Origin: Eubacteriales bacterium
GTDB lineage: Bacteria > Bacillota > Clostridia > Oscillospirales > CAG-272
Assembly (NCBI GenBank): GCA_045611685.1
Contig: JAZKXO010000003.1
Span: 20,767 to 84,766, forward strand
Direction of reading: 5' to 3'
DNA: 64,000 nt
Of this stretch, positions 32,856 through 64,000 are shown piece after piece. The number at the start of each line of letters is the position of its first letter. The first letter of the stretch is position 1. A program made the translations under genes and the position numbers. The notes under the pieces are model-generated. The model was not told the DNA's origin. It was given only the letters and a program-made list of their open reading frames with translations, and made no database searches.

Positions 32856-33242
32856 ATGAGTGAGTATTTGACGAAAGAGTATGCTGCCGCTGTCAGTGCC
32901 GCCCAACTTGCGTATCTCGGGGATGCGGTGCTTGAGGTTTTGGTGCGTCGTCGGCTCATTGGCGAAAGCCACAGAAAACCGAGCGAAGAAGCGCTTTCGT
33001 ACGTAACGGCTGCAGCGCAGAGCGATGCCGCCGAGCGCATTCTCCCGCTTCTGACTGAACACGAGGATGCGGCGTATCGGAGAGGCAGAAATTGCGTCCA
33101 CGCCAATGTCCCGAAGAAGGCGACTATGGCACAGTACCGCCGCGCTACAGGCTTTGAAGCACTGTTCGGCTATCTCCATCTGATCGGTGACACGGCGCGT
33201 ATTGAATTTTTGTTTGAAGCGGCGTATCCGGCGGAAAAATAA
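32856..33242 (+). CDS. mrnC: Mini-ribonuclease III
   Basis: LAYLGDAVLE, RRGRN, YRRATGFEALFGYL. Confidence 0.92.
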   Translation: MSEYLTKEYAAAVSAAQLAYLGDAVLEVLVRRRLIGESHRKPSEEALSYVTAAAQSDAAERILPLLTEHEDAAYRRGRNCVHANVPKKATMAQYRRATGFEALFGYLHLIGDTARIEFLFEAAYPAEK

Positions 33243-37735: not shown

Positions 37736-38470
37736 ATGCTGGAACTCATAAACGTCGGCTTCAACGTCGGCGGTGAGAAGGAAATTCTGCGCGGTATCAA
37801 CCTTACGATCGACGACAGATTCGTTGCTATCACAGGCCCGAACGGCGGCGGTAAATCCACTCTCGCGAAAATTATAGCCGGCATTTATCAGCCTACCTCC
37901 GGCAAAATTTTGCTGGACGGTGTGGATATAACAAACAAATCAATCACGGAGAGAGCGAGTCTTGGCATCAGTTACGCTTTCCAGCAGCCCGTTCGCTTCA
38001 AGGGACTTCGTGTGAAAGATCTTTTGAGCCTGGCAGCAGGAAAGAAAACGAATGTGGATGCGGCGTGTGCGCTCCTTTCCGAGGTAGGTCTCTGCGCGCG
38101 CGATTATATTGACCGTGAACTGAACGCCAGTCTCTCCGGCGGTGAACTCAAGCGCATCGAGATTGCGATGATTCTCGCACGCGGCACGAAACTGTCCATT
38201 TTTGACGAGCCGGAGGCCGGCATTGATCTTTGGAGTTTCCAAAACCTCATCCGTGTGTTTGAAAAAATGCATGAGGAAACGAAGGGCAATATTCTCATTA
38301 TCAGCCATCAGGAGCGAATTCTTAATATTGCCGATACGATCGTAGTCATAAAGAACGGTGAGCTTGCCGCTGTGGGTCCGCGTACGGAACTTCTTCCGGG
38401 GCTTCTCGCCGGTACGGAGAGCGGCACGTGCAGTGTCCTTGCCGATAAAGTAGAGGGGGTACGTGCGTAA
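37736..38470 (+). CDS. SufC-like ABC ATPase
   Basis: GPNGGGKST, LSGGELKRIE, DEPEAGIDL. Confidence 0.88.
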   Translation: MLELINVGFNVGGEKEILRGINLTIDDRFVAITGPNGGGKSTLAKIIAGIYQPTSGKILLDGVDITNKSITERASLGISYAFQQPVRFKGLRVKDLLSLAAGKKTNVDAACALLSEVGLCARDYIDRELNASLSGGELKRIEIAMILARGTKLSIFDEPEAGIDLWSFQNLIRVFEKMHEETKGNILIISHQERILNIADTIVVIKNGELAAVGPRTELLPGLLAGTESGTCSVLADKVEGVRA

Positions 38471-39387
38471 TGGATGCAATCAAACAGCGTCTTCTTAAAG
38501 AAGTAGCCGAGCTCGATTCCTTGCCCGTCGGCGCGTACAACATCCGTGAGAACGGAAAAGCGGGCGGACGGCAGACTACCGCCAATATTGATATTCAAAC
38601 GAAAACGGACAAGCCGGGCATCGATATTATCGTAAAAGCCGGCACCAAGAACGAAAGCGTCCATATCCCCGTTGTCCTGAGCGAATCGGGACTCAAGGAT
38701 ATGGTGTACAACGATTTCTTTATCGGCGAGGATGCCGACGTGGTCATCATTGCCGGCTGCGGTATTCATAACGCCGGCTGCGGTGATTCCGCACACGACG
38801 GTATCCATACGTTCCATCTCGCGAAGAATGCACGCCTCCGCTACGTGGAGAAGCATTACGGCGAGGGCGAGGGCAGCGGCAAGCGCCTTATGAACCCGAC
38901 GACGGTAGTGCATCTCGCCGAGGGCGCGCATATGGAAATGGAAACGACGCAGATCGGCGGTATCGACGATACCACGCGTATAACCAACGGCGATCTCGAG
39001 GCGGGCGCTTCTCTTGTCGTCCGCGAGAAGATCATGACCGTAGGCGATCAGCACGCCGTAACCGATTTCACCGTCGATATGAACGGGGAAGGCTCTTCCG
39101 TGAACGTCATCTCGCGCAGTGTCGCAAAAGAGAACAGCCGTCAGGAGTTCGTGAGCAGAATCAACGGCAATACCGCCTGCGCCGGGCACACCGAATGCGA
39201 CGCGATCATCATGGACGATGCGTGCGTGCTTGCCAGCCCCCAGATCACGGCAAACCACGTCGATGCATCGCTTATTCACGAGGCGGCGATCGGTAAAATT
39301 GCGGGTGAGCAGCTTATTAAGCTTATGACGCTCGGACTCACCGAGAGAGAAGCCGAAGAGCAGATCGTAAACGGATTTTTGGCATAA
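38470..39387 (+). CDS. SufB/SufD-family Fe-S assembly protein
   Basis: AGCGIH, GHTECDAII, LIHEAAIGKIA...QIVNGFL. Confidence 0.9.
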   Translation: MDAIKQRLLKEVAELDSLPVGAYNIRENGKAGGRQTTANIDIQTKTDKPGIDIIVKAGTKNESVHIPVVLSESGLKDMVYNDFFIGEDADVVIIAGCGIHNAGCGDSAHDGIHTFHLAKNARLRYVEKHYGEGEGSGKRLMNPTTVVHLAEGAHMEMETTQIGGIDDTTRITNGDLEAGASLVVREKIMTVGDQHAVTDFTVDMNGEGSSVNVISRSVAKENSRQEFVSRINGNTACAGHTECDAIIMDDACVLASPQITANHVDASLIHEAAIGKIAGEQLIKLMTLGLTEREAEEQIVNGFLA

Positions 39388-39446: not shown

Positions 39447-41591
39447 ATGATCCTCATTATTGCGGAAAAGCCGTCGCTTGCGCGCAACATCGCCGACGGT
39501 ATCGCGAAAGCCGAAAACGTGCGGATGTCCAGAAAGGACGGCTATATCGAAGGCGGCTCGTATCTCGTGACGTGGGCATTCGGCCATCTGTTCTCCCTTT
39601 GTGATATTGAAACGTACCGCCCGAATCCCGAAGGAAACCGCTGGTCGGTCAAAAATATCCCGTGCTTTCCTGCGGATTTTCGGTTTGAACTCAGAAAGAA
39701 TGCGGACGGCACTCGCGATGTGGGTATCGAAAAGCAGTTCGGAACGATCCGCGCTCTATGCAACCGCCCCGACGTTGACGTGATCGTGAACGCGGGCGAC
39801 GCCGACCGTGAGGGCGAGATCATCGTCCGTCTCTGCATCGGGCACGCTTTGGAGAACGAAAAGGATCTTCGCCGGCTTTGGCTTCCCGATCAGACACCTG
39901 AAACTATCGCGCAGGCGCTTTCGGAGATGAAATCCGAGGCGGAATACGAGAACCTCGCAAACGAGGGGTACGCCCGTACATATATCGACTGGCTTTACGG
40001 CGTCAATCCCACCAGATACGCCACGCTGAAAACGGGGACGCTTCTGCGCGTCGGGCGCGTGATCGTGCCGATCGTCCGCGCGATCTATGACAGAGATATG
40101 GCGATTCGCAATTTCACACCCGAGCCGTACTTTGCCGTTGTCAGCCGCGCTCGGACGAACGGCGAGAGTGTAGAACTCACAAGCAAGCAGAAATTCGATA
40201 AACATCACAAAGCCGATGCCGAACGGCTCTCTGCCCGCTACAACGCGGCGAAAACGGTCGTTACGTCCGTGAAGCACAAAAAAGATAAGATGGCGCCGGG
40301 CAAACTGTACTCGCTTTCGAAACTCCAGAATGTCCTCAGCAAGAAGTACAAAATGTCCATGACGGAATCGCTCGAGATCGTACAGGGGCTCTATGAGAAA
40401 GGGTATCTGACCTATCCCCGTACCAACTCCGAGTATCTTGCCACCGCCGAGAAGGATAAGATCAGAAAGATCATCGATGGGGCGGTAAAACTCGGTTATC
40501 CGCTAGTTTTCAAGGACGGAAAGAATATTTTTGACGATTCGAAAATTGAATCGCACTCCGCGCTCACCCCCACGTACAAGATTCCCGATAAGAACCACCT
40601 TACCGAAAAAGAGATGCAGGTTTACTCCACCGTATTCCGCCGCTTTGCCGCGGTTTTCTGTCGGGAGGATTGCCTTGTTGATAAAACGGAGATCAAGATC
40701 GCCGTTATGGAAGGCGAGACGGTTCTTGAGGAGTTCACGCTCCGCGGAACGGTGATTCTCGAACGCGGTTGGATGAAGTACGACGATACCGCGCAAAAGG
40801 ATAAGATTCTGCCGCCGCTCGGGAAGGGCGATATTCTTACAACCGATTTTAGGCCTGCCGAAAAAGAGACGAGTCCGCCAAAGCATTACACGATTGAAAC
40901 GCTCAACAATTATCTCAAAAATCCGTTCCGCGAAGAAAAGGCGGCTGCCGATAAAGCCGAGCGGGCGGAGGATGAGGCAGATGACAGGGAAGAATACCGC
41001 GCGATGCTTGAGGGATTGGAACTTGGCACAGAAGCGACGCGAACGGGCATTATAGACAACGCCCGAAAATCCGGATACATTGAACTGAAGAAAGACGTAT
41101 ATACGATTTTGCCGGACGGCGAATTTCTCATTGAATCCATCTCGCAGATGGGAATAGGCATGGATAAGTACAAAACCGCCGAGGTCGGGCGTGCTTTGAA
41201 GCGTGTGTTCCGCGGCGAATCTACCGTGCGCGAAAGCGTGGCGATCGCCGAGGCGGAGATCTCTGCCGTGTTTCAGAAAAAGGATGCGCCACCTGCCGAA
41301 GATACGGATACCGGCTATTTCGGTGATATCGTGGGAAAATGCCCCCTTTGCGGTATGGACGTCCGCCGCACGCGCCGCGGCTACGGCTGCGCGGGTTATA
41401 AAGAGAACGGCTGTAAATTCAGCATTTACTCGCCGATCTGTGCGCGTGTGATTCCCAAAGCGAGCGTGGAGCAGCTTCTGCGCGACGGACGTACCGATAT
41501 AATCAGCGGTTTTGTGTCGAAACGGACGGGAAACAAATTCGACGCGCGCCTAAAACTCGAAGGCGATCGTGCTGTGTTTGATTTTTCATAA
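39447..41591 (+). CDS. topB: Type IA DNA topoisomerase (Topo III-like)
   Basis: IAEKPSLA, DADREGE, LTYPRT, HSALTPT, LGTEATR, C-terminal Zn ribbon. Confidence 0.88.
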   Translation: MILIIAEKPSLARNIADGIAKAENVRMSRKDGYIEGGSYLVTWAFGHLFSLCDIETYRPNPEGNRWSVKNIPCFPADFRFELRKNADGTRDVGIEKQFGTIRALCNRPDVDVIVNAGDADREGEIIVRLCIGHALENEKDLRRLWLPDQTPETIAQALSEMKSEAEYENLANEGYARTYIDWLYGVNPTRYATLKTGTLLRVGRVIVPIVRAIYDRDMAIRNFTPEPYFAVVSRARTNGESVELTSKQKFDKHHKADAERLSARYNAAKTVVTSVKHKKDKMAPGKLYSLSKLQNVLSKKYKMSMTESLEIVQGLYEKGYLTYPRTNSEYLATAEKDKIRKIIDGAVKLGYPLVFKDGKNIFDDSKIESHSALTPTYKIPDKNHLTEKEMQVYSTVFRRFAAVFCREDCLVDKTEIKIAVMEGETVLEEFTLRGTVILERGWMKYDDTAQKDKILPPLGKGDILTTDFRPAEKETSPPKHYTIETLNNYLKNPFREEKAAADKAERAEDEADDREEYRAMLEGLELGTEATRTGIIDNARKSGYIELKKDVYTILPDGEFLIESISQMGIGMDKYKTAEVGRALKRVFRGESTVRESVAIAEAEISAVFQKKDAPPAEDTDTGYFGDIVGKCPLCGMDVRRTRRGYGCAGYKENGCKFSIYSPICARVIPKASVEQLLRDGRTDIISGFVSKRTGNKFDARLKLEGDRAVFDFS

Positions 41592-56207: not shown

Positions 56208-56281
56208 AGTGTTCCTTTCTCTGACGGATAAAAAATTGCCCCGGACAGAGTCCGAGGCAAATCAACCGTTTGCTTATCGAC

Positions 56282-56372
56282 TCTTATCTATCGGGAATTA
56301 GCACCTTGCCGACTTTTATCGGTAGGTTGCCGGGCTTCATGGGGCCTGTCCCTCCGCCACTCTTGATAAGAT
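56282..56372 (-). promoter_or_regulatory. SAM-I (S-box) riboswitch; terminator at about 56230-56260
   Basis: CTTATCAAGAGTGGCGGAGGGACAGGCCC-ATGAAGCCCGGCAACC...GGTGCTAATTCC...AGATAAG. Confidence 0.95.
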
Positions 56373-58253: not shown

Positions 58254-58367
58254 AATAATTCTCCTTCGTAAATACACAAGGAGAAGATAAAACCCCGAGC
58301 GAAGAATCGACTCGGGGAAGCTAACTCCGTTTGGAGGCTGAAAGCCTGCCATTATGCGGTTTAGTAT

Positions 58368-58480
58368 ATCTTCTCTCATCCGGACTTTAACCGTCGGTGC
58401 AGGAATTACGCCTGCTCGGCGCCTGTGGGCGTTCGTGGACTGTACCACCGGTATGGATTTTCACCATTCCCCGAAGACTT
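58368..58480 (-). promoter_or_regulatory. FMN (RFN) riboswitch
   Basis: TCTTCGGGG..GGTGAAA.TCC..ACCGGTGGTA.AGTCCACGA...CCGACGGTTAAAGTCCGGATGAGAGAAGA. Confidence 0.95.
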
Positions 58481-58559
58481 GTTCAATTTTTGAAAGAGCA
58501 CCGACGCGGTCGCGCCGGTGCTCTCGGAAAATCGGTTTTATCCGATAGGCAGAGTAAAA

Positions 58560-59805: not shown

Positions 59806-61893
59806 TTAACCGTTGTTTTTAGCGCGGGTAGTAACGATCTCGTCCTGAATAGACTTCGGCACGGGTGCGAAGTGTGCGGGCTCCATGGAGTACATGGCAC
59901 GACCCTGGGAACGAGAACGAAGGTCGGTTGCGTAACCGAACATGTTAGCCAGCGGAACGAATGCCAGAACTTCGGTAGCACCGTTGCCCTGGGGCTCCAT
60001 GGACTGGATCAGACCGCGACGGGAGTTGAAGTCGCCGATGATATCGCCGAGGTAGTCGTCGGGCGTAATGGTAACGACCTTCATGACAGGCTCGGTGAGA
60101 ACGGGGTCTGCGAGTCTCATAGCTTCCTTGAACGCCATAGAACCGGCAATCTTGAACGCCATTTCCGAAGAGTCAACTTCGTGGTAAGAACCGTCATACA
60201 GAGTAACCTTAACGTCTACGACGTTGTAGCCGGCGAGAACACCGTTCTGCATAGCGCCCTGAATACCCTGGTTAACAGGCTCGATGAATTCCTTCGGAAT
60301 TGCCCCGCCGGTAACCGCGTTGACAAATTCGTATCCTGCACCGGGCTCGTTCGGCTCAAGAGTAATCTTGACATGACCGTACTGACCGGGACCACCGGAC
60401 TGACGCTTGTACTTGCATTCGTGATCGACTTTCTTGCGAACAGTCTCCTTGTATGCAACCTGCGGTTTACCGATGTTTGCCTCTACCTTGAATTCACGGA
60501 GGAGTCGGTCCACGATGATTTCGAGGTGGAGCTCACCCATGCCGGCGATGATGGTCTGACCGGTTTCTTCATCCGTGTAGGTACGGAACGTGGGATCTTC
60601 CTCAGCGAGCTTCGAGAGAGCGATACCCATCTTCTCCTGACCGGCACGGGTCTTCGGCTCAATAGCCTGACGGATAACCGGCTCAGGGAATTCCATGTTC
60701 TCAAGGATGATCGGGTGCTTCGGATCACAGAAGGTATCACCGGTAGTGGTGTACTTCGTGGAAACAACGGCAGCGATATCACCTGCATAGCAGTGATCGA
60801 TATCGGTACGGTTGTTGGCGTGCATCTGCAGAACGCGGCCGAAACGCTCGGACTTGTCCTTAGAGGAGTTGTAAACGGAAGAACCGGATTCAACTACGCC
60901 GGAATACACGCGGAAGAAGCAGAGCTTACCAACAAACGGGTCGGTCGTGATCTTGAACGCCAGAGCAGAGAAGGGTTCTTCATCGGAAGAATGACGAGCC
61001 TCTTCTTCGCCGGTATCGGGGTTCACACCGGTGATATCCGGAATGTCGGTAGGAGCGGGCATGTAATCGATAACTGCGTCGAGCAGTTTCTGAACGCCCT
61101 TGTTCTTATAGGAAGTTCCGCATACGACGGGAACGATCTTGTTGTCGATCGTAGCCTTGCGGAGAGCAACCTTCAGTTCGTCGATGGTGATCTCTTCGCC
61201 TTCGCAGTACTTCATGAAGAGATCCTCATCGGTTTCGCAGATGGATTCAACCATCTGGGAGCGGTACTTTTCAGCCAGCTCCTTCATGTCGTCCGGAATC
61301 GGCTCGACACGCATGTCCTTGCCCAGATCATCGTAGTAGATGTCTGCTTCCATGTTCATCAGATCGATGATGCCACGGAAGGTGCTTTCAGCACCGATGG
61401 GGAGCTGAATCGGAACAGCGTTTGCGTGGAGTCTGTCGTGCATCATTTCAACAACGCGGAAGAAATTTGCACCGTTGATGTCCATCTTGTTGACGTAACC
61501 CATGCGCGGGACCTTGTACTTATCGGCCTGTCTCCAAACCGTTTCGGACTGCGGTTCAACGCCGCCTTTTGCGCAGAAAACGGTTACAGAGCCGTCGAGC
61601 ACGCGAAGAGAACGCTCAACTTCTACCGTAAAGTCAACGTGACCGGGGGTATCAATGATGTTGATTCGCGTATCTTTCCAGAAACAGGTGGTAGCGGCAG
61701 AGGTAATGGTAATACCTCTTTCCTGCTCCTGCTCCATCCAGTCCATGGTAGCGCCGCCTTCGTGCGTCTCACCCATCTTGTGCGTCTTACCCGTGTAGAA
61801 CAGGATACGCTCGGTGGTGGTCGTCTTACCGGCGTCGATATGTGCCATGATACCGATATTTCTGGTACGCTCAAGTGAATATTCCCTTGGCAT
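59806..61893 (-). CDS. fusA: Elongation factor G
   Basis: [32 protein letters not shown]. Confidence 0.99.
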
Positions 61894-61952
61894 ATTTGAT
61901 GTTTCTCCTTTTGGTTAAACAAAGCAGCAAAGCTTACGCTGCAATCCGTATA

Positions 61953-62423
61953 TTAATATCTGAAATGCGCGAATGCCTTGTTGGCTTCTGCCATCTTGTG
62001 GACTTCTTCCTTCTTCTTGAAGGCGCCGCCGGCGCTGTTCTTAGCGTCAACGATTTCTGCTGCAAGGCGCTCAGCCATCGTACGTTCGGATCTGTTGCGT
62101 GCGGCGTTAGTGAGCCAACGCAGACCGAGCGTCTGACGTCTTTCTGCGCGAACTTCCATAGGAACCTGGTAGTTGGCACCACCTACGCGGCGAGCCTTTA
62201 CTTCCAGAACAGGCATTACGTTGTCCAATGCTTCAGTGAAAACTTCCAGAGCATTCTGTCCCTGCTTTTCTTCAACCATCTGGAATGCATCGTAAACGAT
62301 CTTCTGAGCTACGCCCTTCTTACCGTCGAGCATAATGTTGTTGATGAGCTTGGTTACAGTCTTGGAATTGTAAAGCGGATCCGGCAGCACATCTCTTTTA
62401 GAAATCTGACCTCTTCTCGACAC
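61953..62423 (-). CDS. rpsG: 30S ribosomal protein S7 (GTG start)
   Basis: [23 protein letters not shown]. Confidence 0.98.
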
Positions 62424-62586
62424 TGTACTTCCCTCCTTCATTAAAAATAGATGAGATCATAGGTACTCGAAAGATGCTTTCGCAAGTGCCGGCCGGCCAG
62501 ATGTATATAAACAATATCACATACAGTCTGTTCCCGTGCTTGGCACGCTGAAAGGGAACTTTACGAGGATCAAAGAACTTTAAGAA

Positions 62587-63009
62587 TTACTTCTTAGCGG
62601 CCTTTGCGCGCTTTGCGCCGTACTTGGAACGGCTCTGGTTGCGGTTAGCAACACCCTGTGCATCGAGCGTACCACGGATAATGTGATAACGGACACCAGG
62701 GAGGTCACGAACACGGCCGCCGCGAATAAGAACGACGGAGTGCTCCTGCAGGTTGTGACCGATACCCGGAATGTAAGCGGTTGCCTCCATGCCGTTGGTA
62801 AGTCTTACTTTCGCAAACTTACGAAGAGCCGAGTTCGGCTTCTTAGGCGTGGTGGTACCTACCTTCGTGCAGACGCCGCGCTTCTGAGGCGCGCTCTGAT
62901 CGATTGCCTTGTTCTTCAGCGAGTTGAAGCCCTTCTGAAGTACCGGGGCTTTGGACTTGTAGGTCTTGTCGGTTCTGCCCTGTTTGACAAGCTGGTTAAA
63001 GGTTGGCAT
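62587..63009 (-). CDS. rpsL: 30S ribosomal protein S12
   Basis: [33 protein letters not shown]. Confidence 0.98.
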
Positions 63010-63130
63010 TCTTTTTCCTCCTTCTTTCGTAATATTGTTTATATACATCGGCGGAAAGAGAACCCGCCAAAGTATCGAGGTTTTTTCGTTTTTGCGCACA
63101 GAAAAAACTGCACACACAAACGTACAGCAT

Positions 63131-63159
63131 ATTATAACATTTTAATCCCGCGCTGTCAA
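63131..63159 (-). promoter_or_regulatory. sigA promoter of the str operon
   Basis: TTGACA-17-TATAAT with extended TG. Confidence 0.85.
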
Positions 63160-63350
63160 GCATTTTTTTCTAATAAATACAATGAAAATAGATTTTCCTA
63201 TTCCTACAAATTTATGCGTAAAAAGTGCTGATATTTGTGATTTTTATGCCTGTTTTTCCACCGCTACACAAACGCATTCCGAAATAACGAAAAGGGCGTG
63301 ATCTTTCGATCACACCCTTGTTCATTTTTATGGGGATTCAGGCGGTTCGA

Positions 63351-64000
<650 letters not shown>

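Follow-up and report, generated by a model that had tools for sequence, protein, structure and literature searches.

A conserved long-range RNA helix encloses the whole of rpsL in the str-operon mRNA of CAG-272-family Clostridia and probably helps to control S12 and S7 production

Ribosomal RNA processing stems are long-range helices that flank a functional unit, and their cleavage by RNase III or Mini-III frees that unit. In Bacillus subtilis mRNAs, RNase III also cuts long-range intramolecular duplexes of 10-36 bp, the cut sites being at most 505 nt apart (Taggart et al. 2025, PMC11780869). A related arrangement is found in the icaR mRNA of Staphylococcus aureus, in which a short UCCCCUG motif in the terminal 3′ UTR pairs with the 5′ UTR and covers the Shine-Dalgarno (SD) sequence, thereby blocking initiation and creating an RNase III substrate (PMC3868564). 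End-to-end pairing is likewise described for the small, highly expressed and monocistronic hbs mRNA of B. subtilis, where it influences ribonuclease access through a mechanism involving RNase Y and J1 (PMC5737220). In the str operon of Escherichia coli, the S7 operator is a structured leader before rpsG that resides wholly within the rpsL-rpsG spacer, and leaves the rpsL 5′ UTR uninvolved, in an operon where S12 and S7 are known to need co-regulation (PMC3616713, PMC10931766); after S7 binds the spacer, rpsL is retro-regulated by mRNA destabilisation (PMC10931766). This structure is reported not to be conserved outside Gammaproteobacteria, and many species have extended rpsL-rpsG spacers in which it was not found (Fu et al., PMC3616713).

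The locus considered here lies in a 64-kb stretch of DNA (the window) from Eubacteriales bacterium GCA_045611685.1, contig JAZKXO010000003.1, which belongs to the family CAG-272 of the order Oscillospirales. On the minus strand, the end of rpoC is followed by a terminator-like hairpin, a promoter, the 5′ UTR of rpsL (approximately 115 nt), rpsL itself, a spacer of 163 nt, rpsG, fusA and tuf. In the direction of transcription, the features are as follows:

Minus strand: 3′ end of rpoC (Pfam RNA_pol_Rpb1_5)
63319-63292, minus strand: terminator-like hairpin of rpoC, upstream of the operon promoter
63159-63131, minus strand: sigma-70-type promoter of rpsL-rpsG-fusA-tuf, TTGACA-17-TGnTATAAT, with 12/12 hexamer matches
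63050-63068, minus strand: GC-rich local hairpin GGCGG..CCGCC, which folds and directly abuts the 5′ arm
63029-63049, minus strand: 5′ arm of the long-range helix; conserved core GUAUAUAAACA
63017-63023, minus strand: rpsL SD sequence AAGGAGG, 5 nt downstream of the 5′ arm and a conserved column block in the alignment
62587-63009, minus strand: rpsL (S12, 140 aa; Pfam Ribosom_S12_S23), AUG at 63009-63007, enclosed by the helix
62530-62559, minus strand: spacer hairpin GUUCCC..GGGAAC, which folds between the rpsL stop codon and the 3′ arm
62500-62520, minus strand: 3′ arm of the long-range helix; conserved core UGUUUAUAUAC; begins 66 nt past the rpsL stop codon and ends 76 nt short of the GUG of rpsG
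62421-62490, minus strand: rpsG leader, a candidate S7 operator, with conserved elements up to the GUG
61953-62423, minus strand: rpsG (S7; Pfam Ribosomal_S7), start GUG at 62423

At the place of the GC-rich hairpin in the 5′ UTR, many relatives have a hairpin of different sequence. Directly downstream of tuf, and before an ORF for a membrane protein, is an FMN riboswitch (58364-58482, minus strand), with a SAM riboswitch (56281-56372, minus strand) beyond it.

The segment GAUGUAUAUAAACAAUAUUAC (63049-63029) in the 5′ UTR is complementary on the minus (mRNA) strand to GUGAUAUUGUUUAUAUACAUC (62520-62500) in the spacer over 21 nt, with 508 nt between the two. The sole position that is not a Watson-Crick pair is U63031-G62518, which reads as A-C on the other strand. 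The position of the promoter at 63159-63131 places both arms on one predicted transcript, and no terminator-like site was found in the rpsL-rpsG spacer. Only 5 nt separate the 5′ arm from AAGGAGG, and 19 nt separate it from the AUG; neither arm is in the path of translating ribosomes. On re-reading the minus strand, the coordinates, letters, 21-bp complementarity and single U-G wobble given by the first-pass annotation all proved correct, as did its placement of the 5′ arm end 19 nt before the AUG, adjoining the SD. Its remark that it knew of no such stem in a ribosomal-protein mRNA needs qualifying, in that the kind of structure is already known from the B. subtilis RNase III duplexes (PMC11780869) and from icaR (PMC3868564); pairing between 5′ and 3′ UTRs around a whole ORF is established for icaR, and so a closure of this kind is not unprecedented.

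Taken by itself, the duplex is predicted to fold with -24.8 kcal/mol, and the helix is present in both the minimum free energy (MFE) and centroid folds of the 711-nt region (z = -7.6 versus 20 shuffles). When the long-range helix is formed, UCCUC (62565-62569, minus strand), 18 nt after the rpsL stop codon, is also predicted to pair with the rpsL SD; the surrounding sequence, CCUCGUAAAG, is conserved only within the genus. The 18-nt core of the arms matches only two sites in the 64-kb window at up to 3 mismatches, namely the arms themselves, and a two-match count was reached in 0/100 shuffles. At up to 2 mismatches, there are likewise only two sites in the 2.31-Mb genome; the repeat is thus unique in the genome and not a dispersed element. 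In the window, 36 pairs of inverted repeats measure at least 16 nt and lie no more than 3 kb apart, and the 25 longest of these include no second pair with 20 nt at 95% complementarity. A 20-nt inverted repeat with 90% complementarity occurs at 39370-39389/40908-40927, its arms 1518 nt apart; one falls at the 3′ end of the upstream ORF 38470-39387, immediately ahead of an ORF of 714 aa (39447-41591) that contains the other. This repeat is probably without significance.

Conservation was assessed at homologous loci from 40 relatives, 60 more genomes from the family (58 of which were each the first to represent their genus) and 80 named contigs from across Clostridia and beyond, with rpsL and rpsG located at each locus by tblastn. 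Because RNAduplex returned meaningless, sprawling structures on long flanks, the best ungapped helix pairing the spacer with the final 70 nt of the 5′ UTR was sought instead, allowing G-U pairs and at most one mismatch. Under a fixed criterion of at least 14 pairs between UTR positions -70 to -6 and a zone of the spacer 18-85 nt ahead of the AGUACC motif, the helix is present in 45 of the 66 CAG-272-family genera, with one locus counted per genus, and in 11/11 extra loci from the same genus; at least 16 pairs are formed in 41/66 genera, and the best helix has fewer than 14 pairs in 21/66. The same criterion identifies a helix in 4/66 loci from other families, one of which (L033) is on the same contig as a family member (L135). 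In relatives, 10-29 nt lie between the end of the 5′ arm and the start codon, the arm running into the SD in a few genera (L117, L118, L132, L168), and the 3′ arm mostly ends 73-95 nt before rpsG. The core AUAAACA/UGUUUAU is common to most genera, and the flanks vary. When applied to the MAFFT alignment of 66 sequences, RNAalifold did not return the helix, a failure that is put down to gappy flanks and weak AU pairs and that still counts as a negative result. A second long-range pairing, between CUCGAUAC in the 5′ UTR (63072-63079, minus strand) and GUGUCGAG (62416-62423, minus strand), which comprises the start codon of rpsG plus the five bases that follow, was rejected as a feature of the family: four loci of the same genus extend it to 12 bp, and only 6/75 loci have p <= 0.05.

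The arms of the helix change together. Wholly different arm sequences occupy the same place in, for example, L017, L024, L115, L116, L137, L151 and L164; the arms of L017 (AAAUCAUUUCAUUAUUUUG/CGAAACAAUGAAAUGAUUU) and of L137 (CGAUUAUAUAUUUUAUAAAAACAUG/CAUGAUUUUAUAAGAUAUAUAAUCG) are each unrelated in sequence and identical in position. Within the genus, L006 presents a paired change from GAUGUA../..UACAUC to GACGUA../..UACGUC. When each UTR was compared with every spacer across 68 loci (the 66 of the family plus L022 and L023 from other families), cognate arms formed a mean of 17.0 pairs versus 11.7 for non-cognate arms, and the observed mean was reached in 0/10,000 permutations, a figure that, like the other permutation figures given here, overstates significance because the genomes are related rather than independent. 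The single best partner is the UTR's own spacer in 27/68 cases. Projection of the 21 window pairs onto the MAFFT alignment (A1, 66 sequences) gives 68.5% paired cells versus 63.3% (sd 0.8) when shuffled; the observed value was reached in 0/500 shuffles for four measures and in 2/500 for pairs changed on both sides, and sliding the partner by 1-3 columns leaves 31-51% paired. With the register instead anchored on the conserved C-G pair of the core and extended without gaps, which was possible in 64/66 sequences (two are gapped at the anchor), the variable flank beside the SD is 63% paired, compared with a mean of 48% and a maximum of 54% over 500 partner swaps.

The strand on which this structure acts can be judged from its mismatches. 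Where helices were called by Watson-Crick pairs only (at least 12 such pairs in 48/67 loci), internal mismatches on the sense strand comprise 34 G-U/U-G, 6 A-C/C-A and 25 others, and the excess of G-U over A-C indicates a structure on the sense RNA. The same result bears on the possibility that the arms are simply an inverted repeat in DNA, whether as two protein sites, a cruciform, the relic of a mobile element, or a product of chance. The arms do form such a repeat, and the sequence conservation of the AU core is what a protein site would show; nevertheless, this reading is disfavoured and highly improbable, given that the arms change together between genera at a fixed position, that sense-strand wobbles are G-U rather than A-C, and that the repeat was not reached by shuffles. 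The helix is a selected RNA structure. The first-pass annotation had suggested selection at the RNA level, which is borne out by a position conserved in most genera of the family, by co-varying arms and by the predominance of G-U over A-C; the check that it proposed, for compensatory changes in both arms, was favourable in that the cognate-arm, alignment and anchored-register tests all exceed their controls. The two arms are therefore the strands of a conserved long-range helix that closes rpsL into a loop of approximately 510 nt in the str-operon mRNA, and this helix probably helps to control production of S12 and its neighbour S7.

The most likely role of the helix, by analogy with known long-range duplexes, is that of an RNase III processing or decay stem coupled to the rpsG leader, a reading to which a probability of roughly 0.4 is assigned. 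Like the B. subtilis substrates, the helix is an intramolecular duplex formed across hundreds of nucleotides in a Firmicute possessing RNase III, and its dimensions (21 bp, 508 nt between the arms) may be set against the 10-36 bp and the limit of 505 nt between cuts described there (PMC11780869); the helices of the relatives also fall within that range of lengths. In contrast to the B. subtilis duplexes, the helix here is known from sequence, is family-wide and co-varying, flanks exactly one ribosomal-protein cistron, and has a conserved AU core. The elements expected of a long-range RNase III substrate are in place, namely a duplex between distant parts of one RNA and an encoded RNase III with a double-stranded RNA-binding domain: the canonical enzyme (251 aa; Ribonucleas_3_3, Ribonuclease_3 and dsrm domains) is encoded on another contig of the host genome (L173:1411-2166). 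Compared with rRNA processing stems, the helix is shorter and AU-rich, and the enclosed unit is a protein-coding cistron rather than a mature stable RNA, the loop containing the S12 coding sequence and no rRNA or tRNA. A Mini-III-like ORF of 128 aa is present in the window (32856-33242, plus strand), just after three tRNA genes, and contains the RNase III catalytic domain only; NCBIfam gave no name for this ORF, its domain being recognised by Pfam, and nothing links Mini-III to the helix site. Likewise, no support emerged for the circular rpsL RNA that the first-pass annotation had suggested testing for.

In the proposed sequence of events, the duplex would form once the 3′ arm has been transcribed, and, as the ribosomes on rpsL and rpsG run through neither arm, it would not be melted by translation. 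A near-perfect 21-bp duplex that is free of ribosome transit should be cut, and RNase III would presumably cut it on both strands. One such cleavage would strip rpsL of its 5′ leader and part rpsL from rpsG-fusA-tuf, so that the S12 message and the S7/EF-G/EF-Tu message would each gain their own 5′ ends and lifetimes. Since the duplex ties the rpsL ribosome-binding site to a probable S7 operator, S7 binding may in turn alter duplex formation and cause a retroregulation of S12 such as follows S7 binding in E. coli. Against the RNase III reading, the AU-rich core AUAAACA/UGUUUAU is conserved in sequence, which a plain RNase III duplex would not need, and a translational role would account equally well for a 5′ arm that is constantly near the SD. 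The names rpsL, rpsG, fusA, rplGB and ybxF are absent from one supplementary file of the B. subtilis RNase III map (PMC11780869), and thus that file provides no direct precedent in the str operon. The 18 sequencing runs retrieved in a search for RNA evidence each had a word share of at most 0.17; in four metatranscriptome runs, the Logan contigs of relatives (mostly 90-95% alike) cover only conserved parts of the rpsL coding sequence and the rpsG leader with its start, and neither arm.

The 3′ arm sits 10-30 nt upstream of a conserved rpsG leader. In the window, this leader (62490-62421) consists, on the minus strand, of GCAC..ACG, a hairpin termed P2 (62482-62468), GAGUACC (62468-62462), UAUGAUCUCAU, AUGAAGGAGGGAAG (containing the SD at 62438-62431) and the GUG. 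Across Clostridia, the order is GCAC..ACG, P2, GAGUACC, UGAnnUCAU or UGAAUUAAU, a variable loop, AUGAAGGAGGGAAG or AUUAAGGAGGGAAG, and the start codon. Outside the family, the motif was read in loci L025-L109, and the leader is present on contigs labelled Oscillospiraceae, Ruminococcus, Acutalibacteraceae and Lachnospiraceae, in a Clostridiaceae MAG, and in Helcococcus and Kallipyga; it is absent, and the spacer short, on contigs labelled Sporolactobacillus, Coprobacillus, Dehalococcoidia and Acidobacteriota. P2 displays compensatory changes, its first pair being G-C in 49 cases and A-U in 13, and the UCAU/AUGA segments of the leader co-vary with UUAAU/AUUAA and CAAU/AUUG. RNAalifold predicted almost nothing on a 139-sequence leader alignment. 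A possible internal promoter at the TATGAT of the leader (9/12 match) was rejected, as relatives vary at the required -10 positions.

On these sequence features, the leader looks like an S7 operator and is regarded as a candidate for one. It shares with the E. coli operator the same operon and spacer, a structured element beside the rpsG start, and the same need for S12/S7 co-regulation, and differs from it in adjoining a helix that makes use of the rpsL 5′ UTR. Homology to the E. coli structure or to a curated RNA family was not found: Rfam gave no match at E values up to 10 in 61800-63500, and none for the leader at gathering score in the whole window. The leader words AGUAC and UGAAU/UGAUA do resemble AGUAA and UGAAN of the gammaproteobacterial S7 site, albeit weakly. 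A 16S rRNA from the same order has GGUGAAUACG after helix 43. No assembled 16S rRNA was present in the host genome or in four family genomes examined, and with only a same-order 16S to read, mimicry of rRNA by the leader stays a lead.

In other families of the order, the spot corresponding to the 3′ arm is often occupied by the downstream strand of a local, AU-rich hairpin, as judged by eye in approximately 21 of 31 MFE folds. Local stems of at least 12 pairs occur in 20/66 other-family loci versus 9/66 loci of the CAG-272 family; one example from other-family spacers is GGUGUAUAU..AUAUACGCC, and spacers with such a hairpin include those of L025, L023, L037, L039, L042, L045, L054, L055, L058, L060, L071, L074, L085 and L095-L097. 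Given a local hairpin there and the 3′ arm here, the partner strand appears to have moved to the front of rpsL, and the stem thus apparently switches between local and cistron-spanning forms. A UTR-spacer helix reached by 0/100 shuffles is also present in 5/66 other-family loci (L101, L054, L069, L083, L086). The clearest is that of Helcococcus bovis (L101), which has 27 pairs and a 5′ arm ending 12 nt before the AUG; L054 forms 17 pairs with a different spacer site, its 3′ arm lying 11 nt after the stop codon. On the evidence of these closures, with Helcococcus bovis the clearest, the closing of rpsL may have arisen more than once.

The junction of helix and leader raises the possibility of a closed-loop translational switch that does not oblige cleavage, an alternative that is the main rival to an RNase III stem and only somewhat less probable. 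Here, the helix would be the outer stem (P1) of an S7-binding leader, its 5′ strand positioned before rpsL instead of in the spacer, and excess S7 would bind the leader and stabilise the helix. As the helix abuts the rpsL SD, one binding event could then block initiation on both rpsL and rpsG. Such a split operator is consistent with the placement of the 3′ arm beside a Clostridia-wide leader whose P2 undergoes compensatory changes, with the local AU-rich hairpin at the equivalent position in other families, and with a 5′ arm that is always close to the SD and overlaps it in L117, L118, L132 and L168. The conserved AU core would also suit protein recognition or a meltable switch better than it would plain double-stranded RNA. 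As for the words AGUAC and UGAAU/UGAUA, the gammaproteobacterial S7 site that they recall is said to mimic 16S rRNA (PMC3616713), but the resemblance is weak, and both words are on one strand here rather than on the two strands of a helix. Moreover, the 21-bp arm of the window does not cover the SD, the predicted pairing of the SD with UCCUC (62569-62565) does not extend in conservation beyond the genus, and RNase III, where present, would be unlikely to spare a near-perfect duplex of 21 bp.

The comparison with icaR is instructive in this respect. As in icaR, the 5′ UTR pairs with a sequence downstream of the same ORF; the helix here is a 21-bp pairing with an intercistronic spacer that stops 5 nt before the SD, and so sequestration of the SD, which the UCCCCUG motif achieves in icaR (PMC3868564), is not seen in the window. 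Processing by RNase III and an S7-dependent switch can nonetheless both hold, as blocked initiation and cleavage do in icaR. Both mechanisms were raised in the first-pass annotation, the former as excision or destabilisation of rpsL by RNase III/Mini-III, and they stand as the leading candidates. A combined form, rather unlikely, would make the helix the closing stem of the Clostridia-wide leader, with one S7 clamping the loop of approximately 510 nt, thereby turning off both S12 and S7, and RNase III finishing the process. The site of S7 in 16S rRNA sits beside long-range helices that close a domain of approximately 400 nt. If the combined form were true, the helix would echo that site and would constitute a bacterial closed-loop mRNA switch, and the closures in Helcococcus bovis and other Clostridia would mark a recurrent solution.

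A further alternative is that the loop is protective or architectural, the paired ends of rpsL shielding AU-rich single strands from RNase Y or J1, or else holding both ends of the rpsL reading frame close to the start of rpsG, which would favour re-use of ribosomes and coupled production of S12 and S7 at 1:1. The hbs mRNA resembles the present case in its end-to-end pairing and in being a small, highly expressed message of a Firmicute, and its 5′/3′-UTR interaction is reported to control RNase action in B. subtilis, although as a monocistronic message dependent on RNase Y and J1 it is unlike the operon here (PMC5737220). Both arms are AU-rich, and RNase Y is reported to prefer such sequence when unstructured (PMC11780869); the arms lie outside the path of translating ribosomes, and closures of rpsL occur independently outside the family (L101, L054). 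Even so, a purely protective loop seems improbable, as it leaves the conserved core sequence unexplained and as a long perfect duplex is more likely to attract RNase III than to protect from it. Cleavage by RNase III, coupled to the leader, is preferred over a protective loop.

No description of the helix or of the leader was found in the literature or in Rfam, which does not prove that none exists, and Table 1 of the ribosomal-protein leader survey of Eckert and Weinberg 2020 has no entry for an S7 or S12 leader. Long-range RNase III duplexes, 5′/3′-UTR closure and ribosomal-protein operators are all known kinds; what is new is a helix that is family-wide, co-varies and surrounds exactly one ribosomal-protein cistron, the way in which this helix adjoins a conserved rpsG leader for which no description was found, and the apparent switch of the same stem between local and cistron-spanning forms. 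Motif searches that consider one intergenic region at a time, such as the 2020 survey of ribosomal-protein leaders, have a blind spot for a helix whose strands reside in two regions. For the organisms concerned, the finding bears on how the products of the str operon (S12, S7, EF-G and EF-Tu) are balanced outside Gammaproteobacteria, and it gives a large group of gut Clostridia a concrete RNA, a cistron-spanning helix together with a leader that has no Rfam match.
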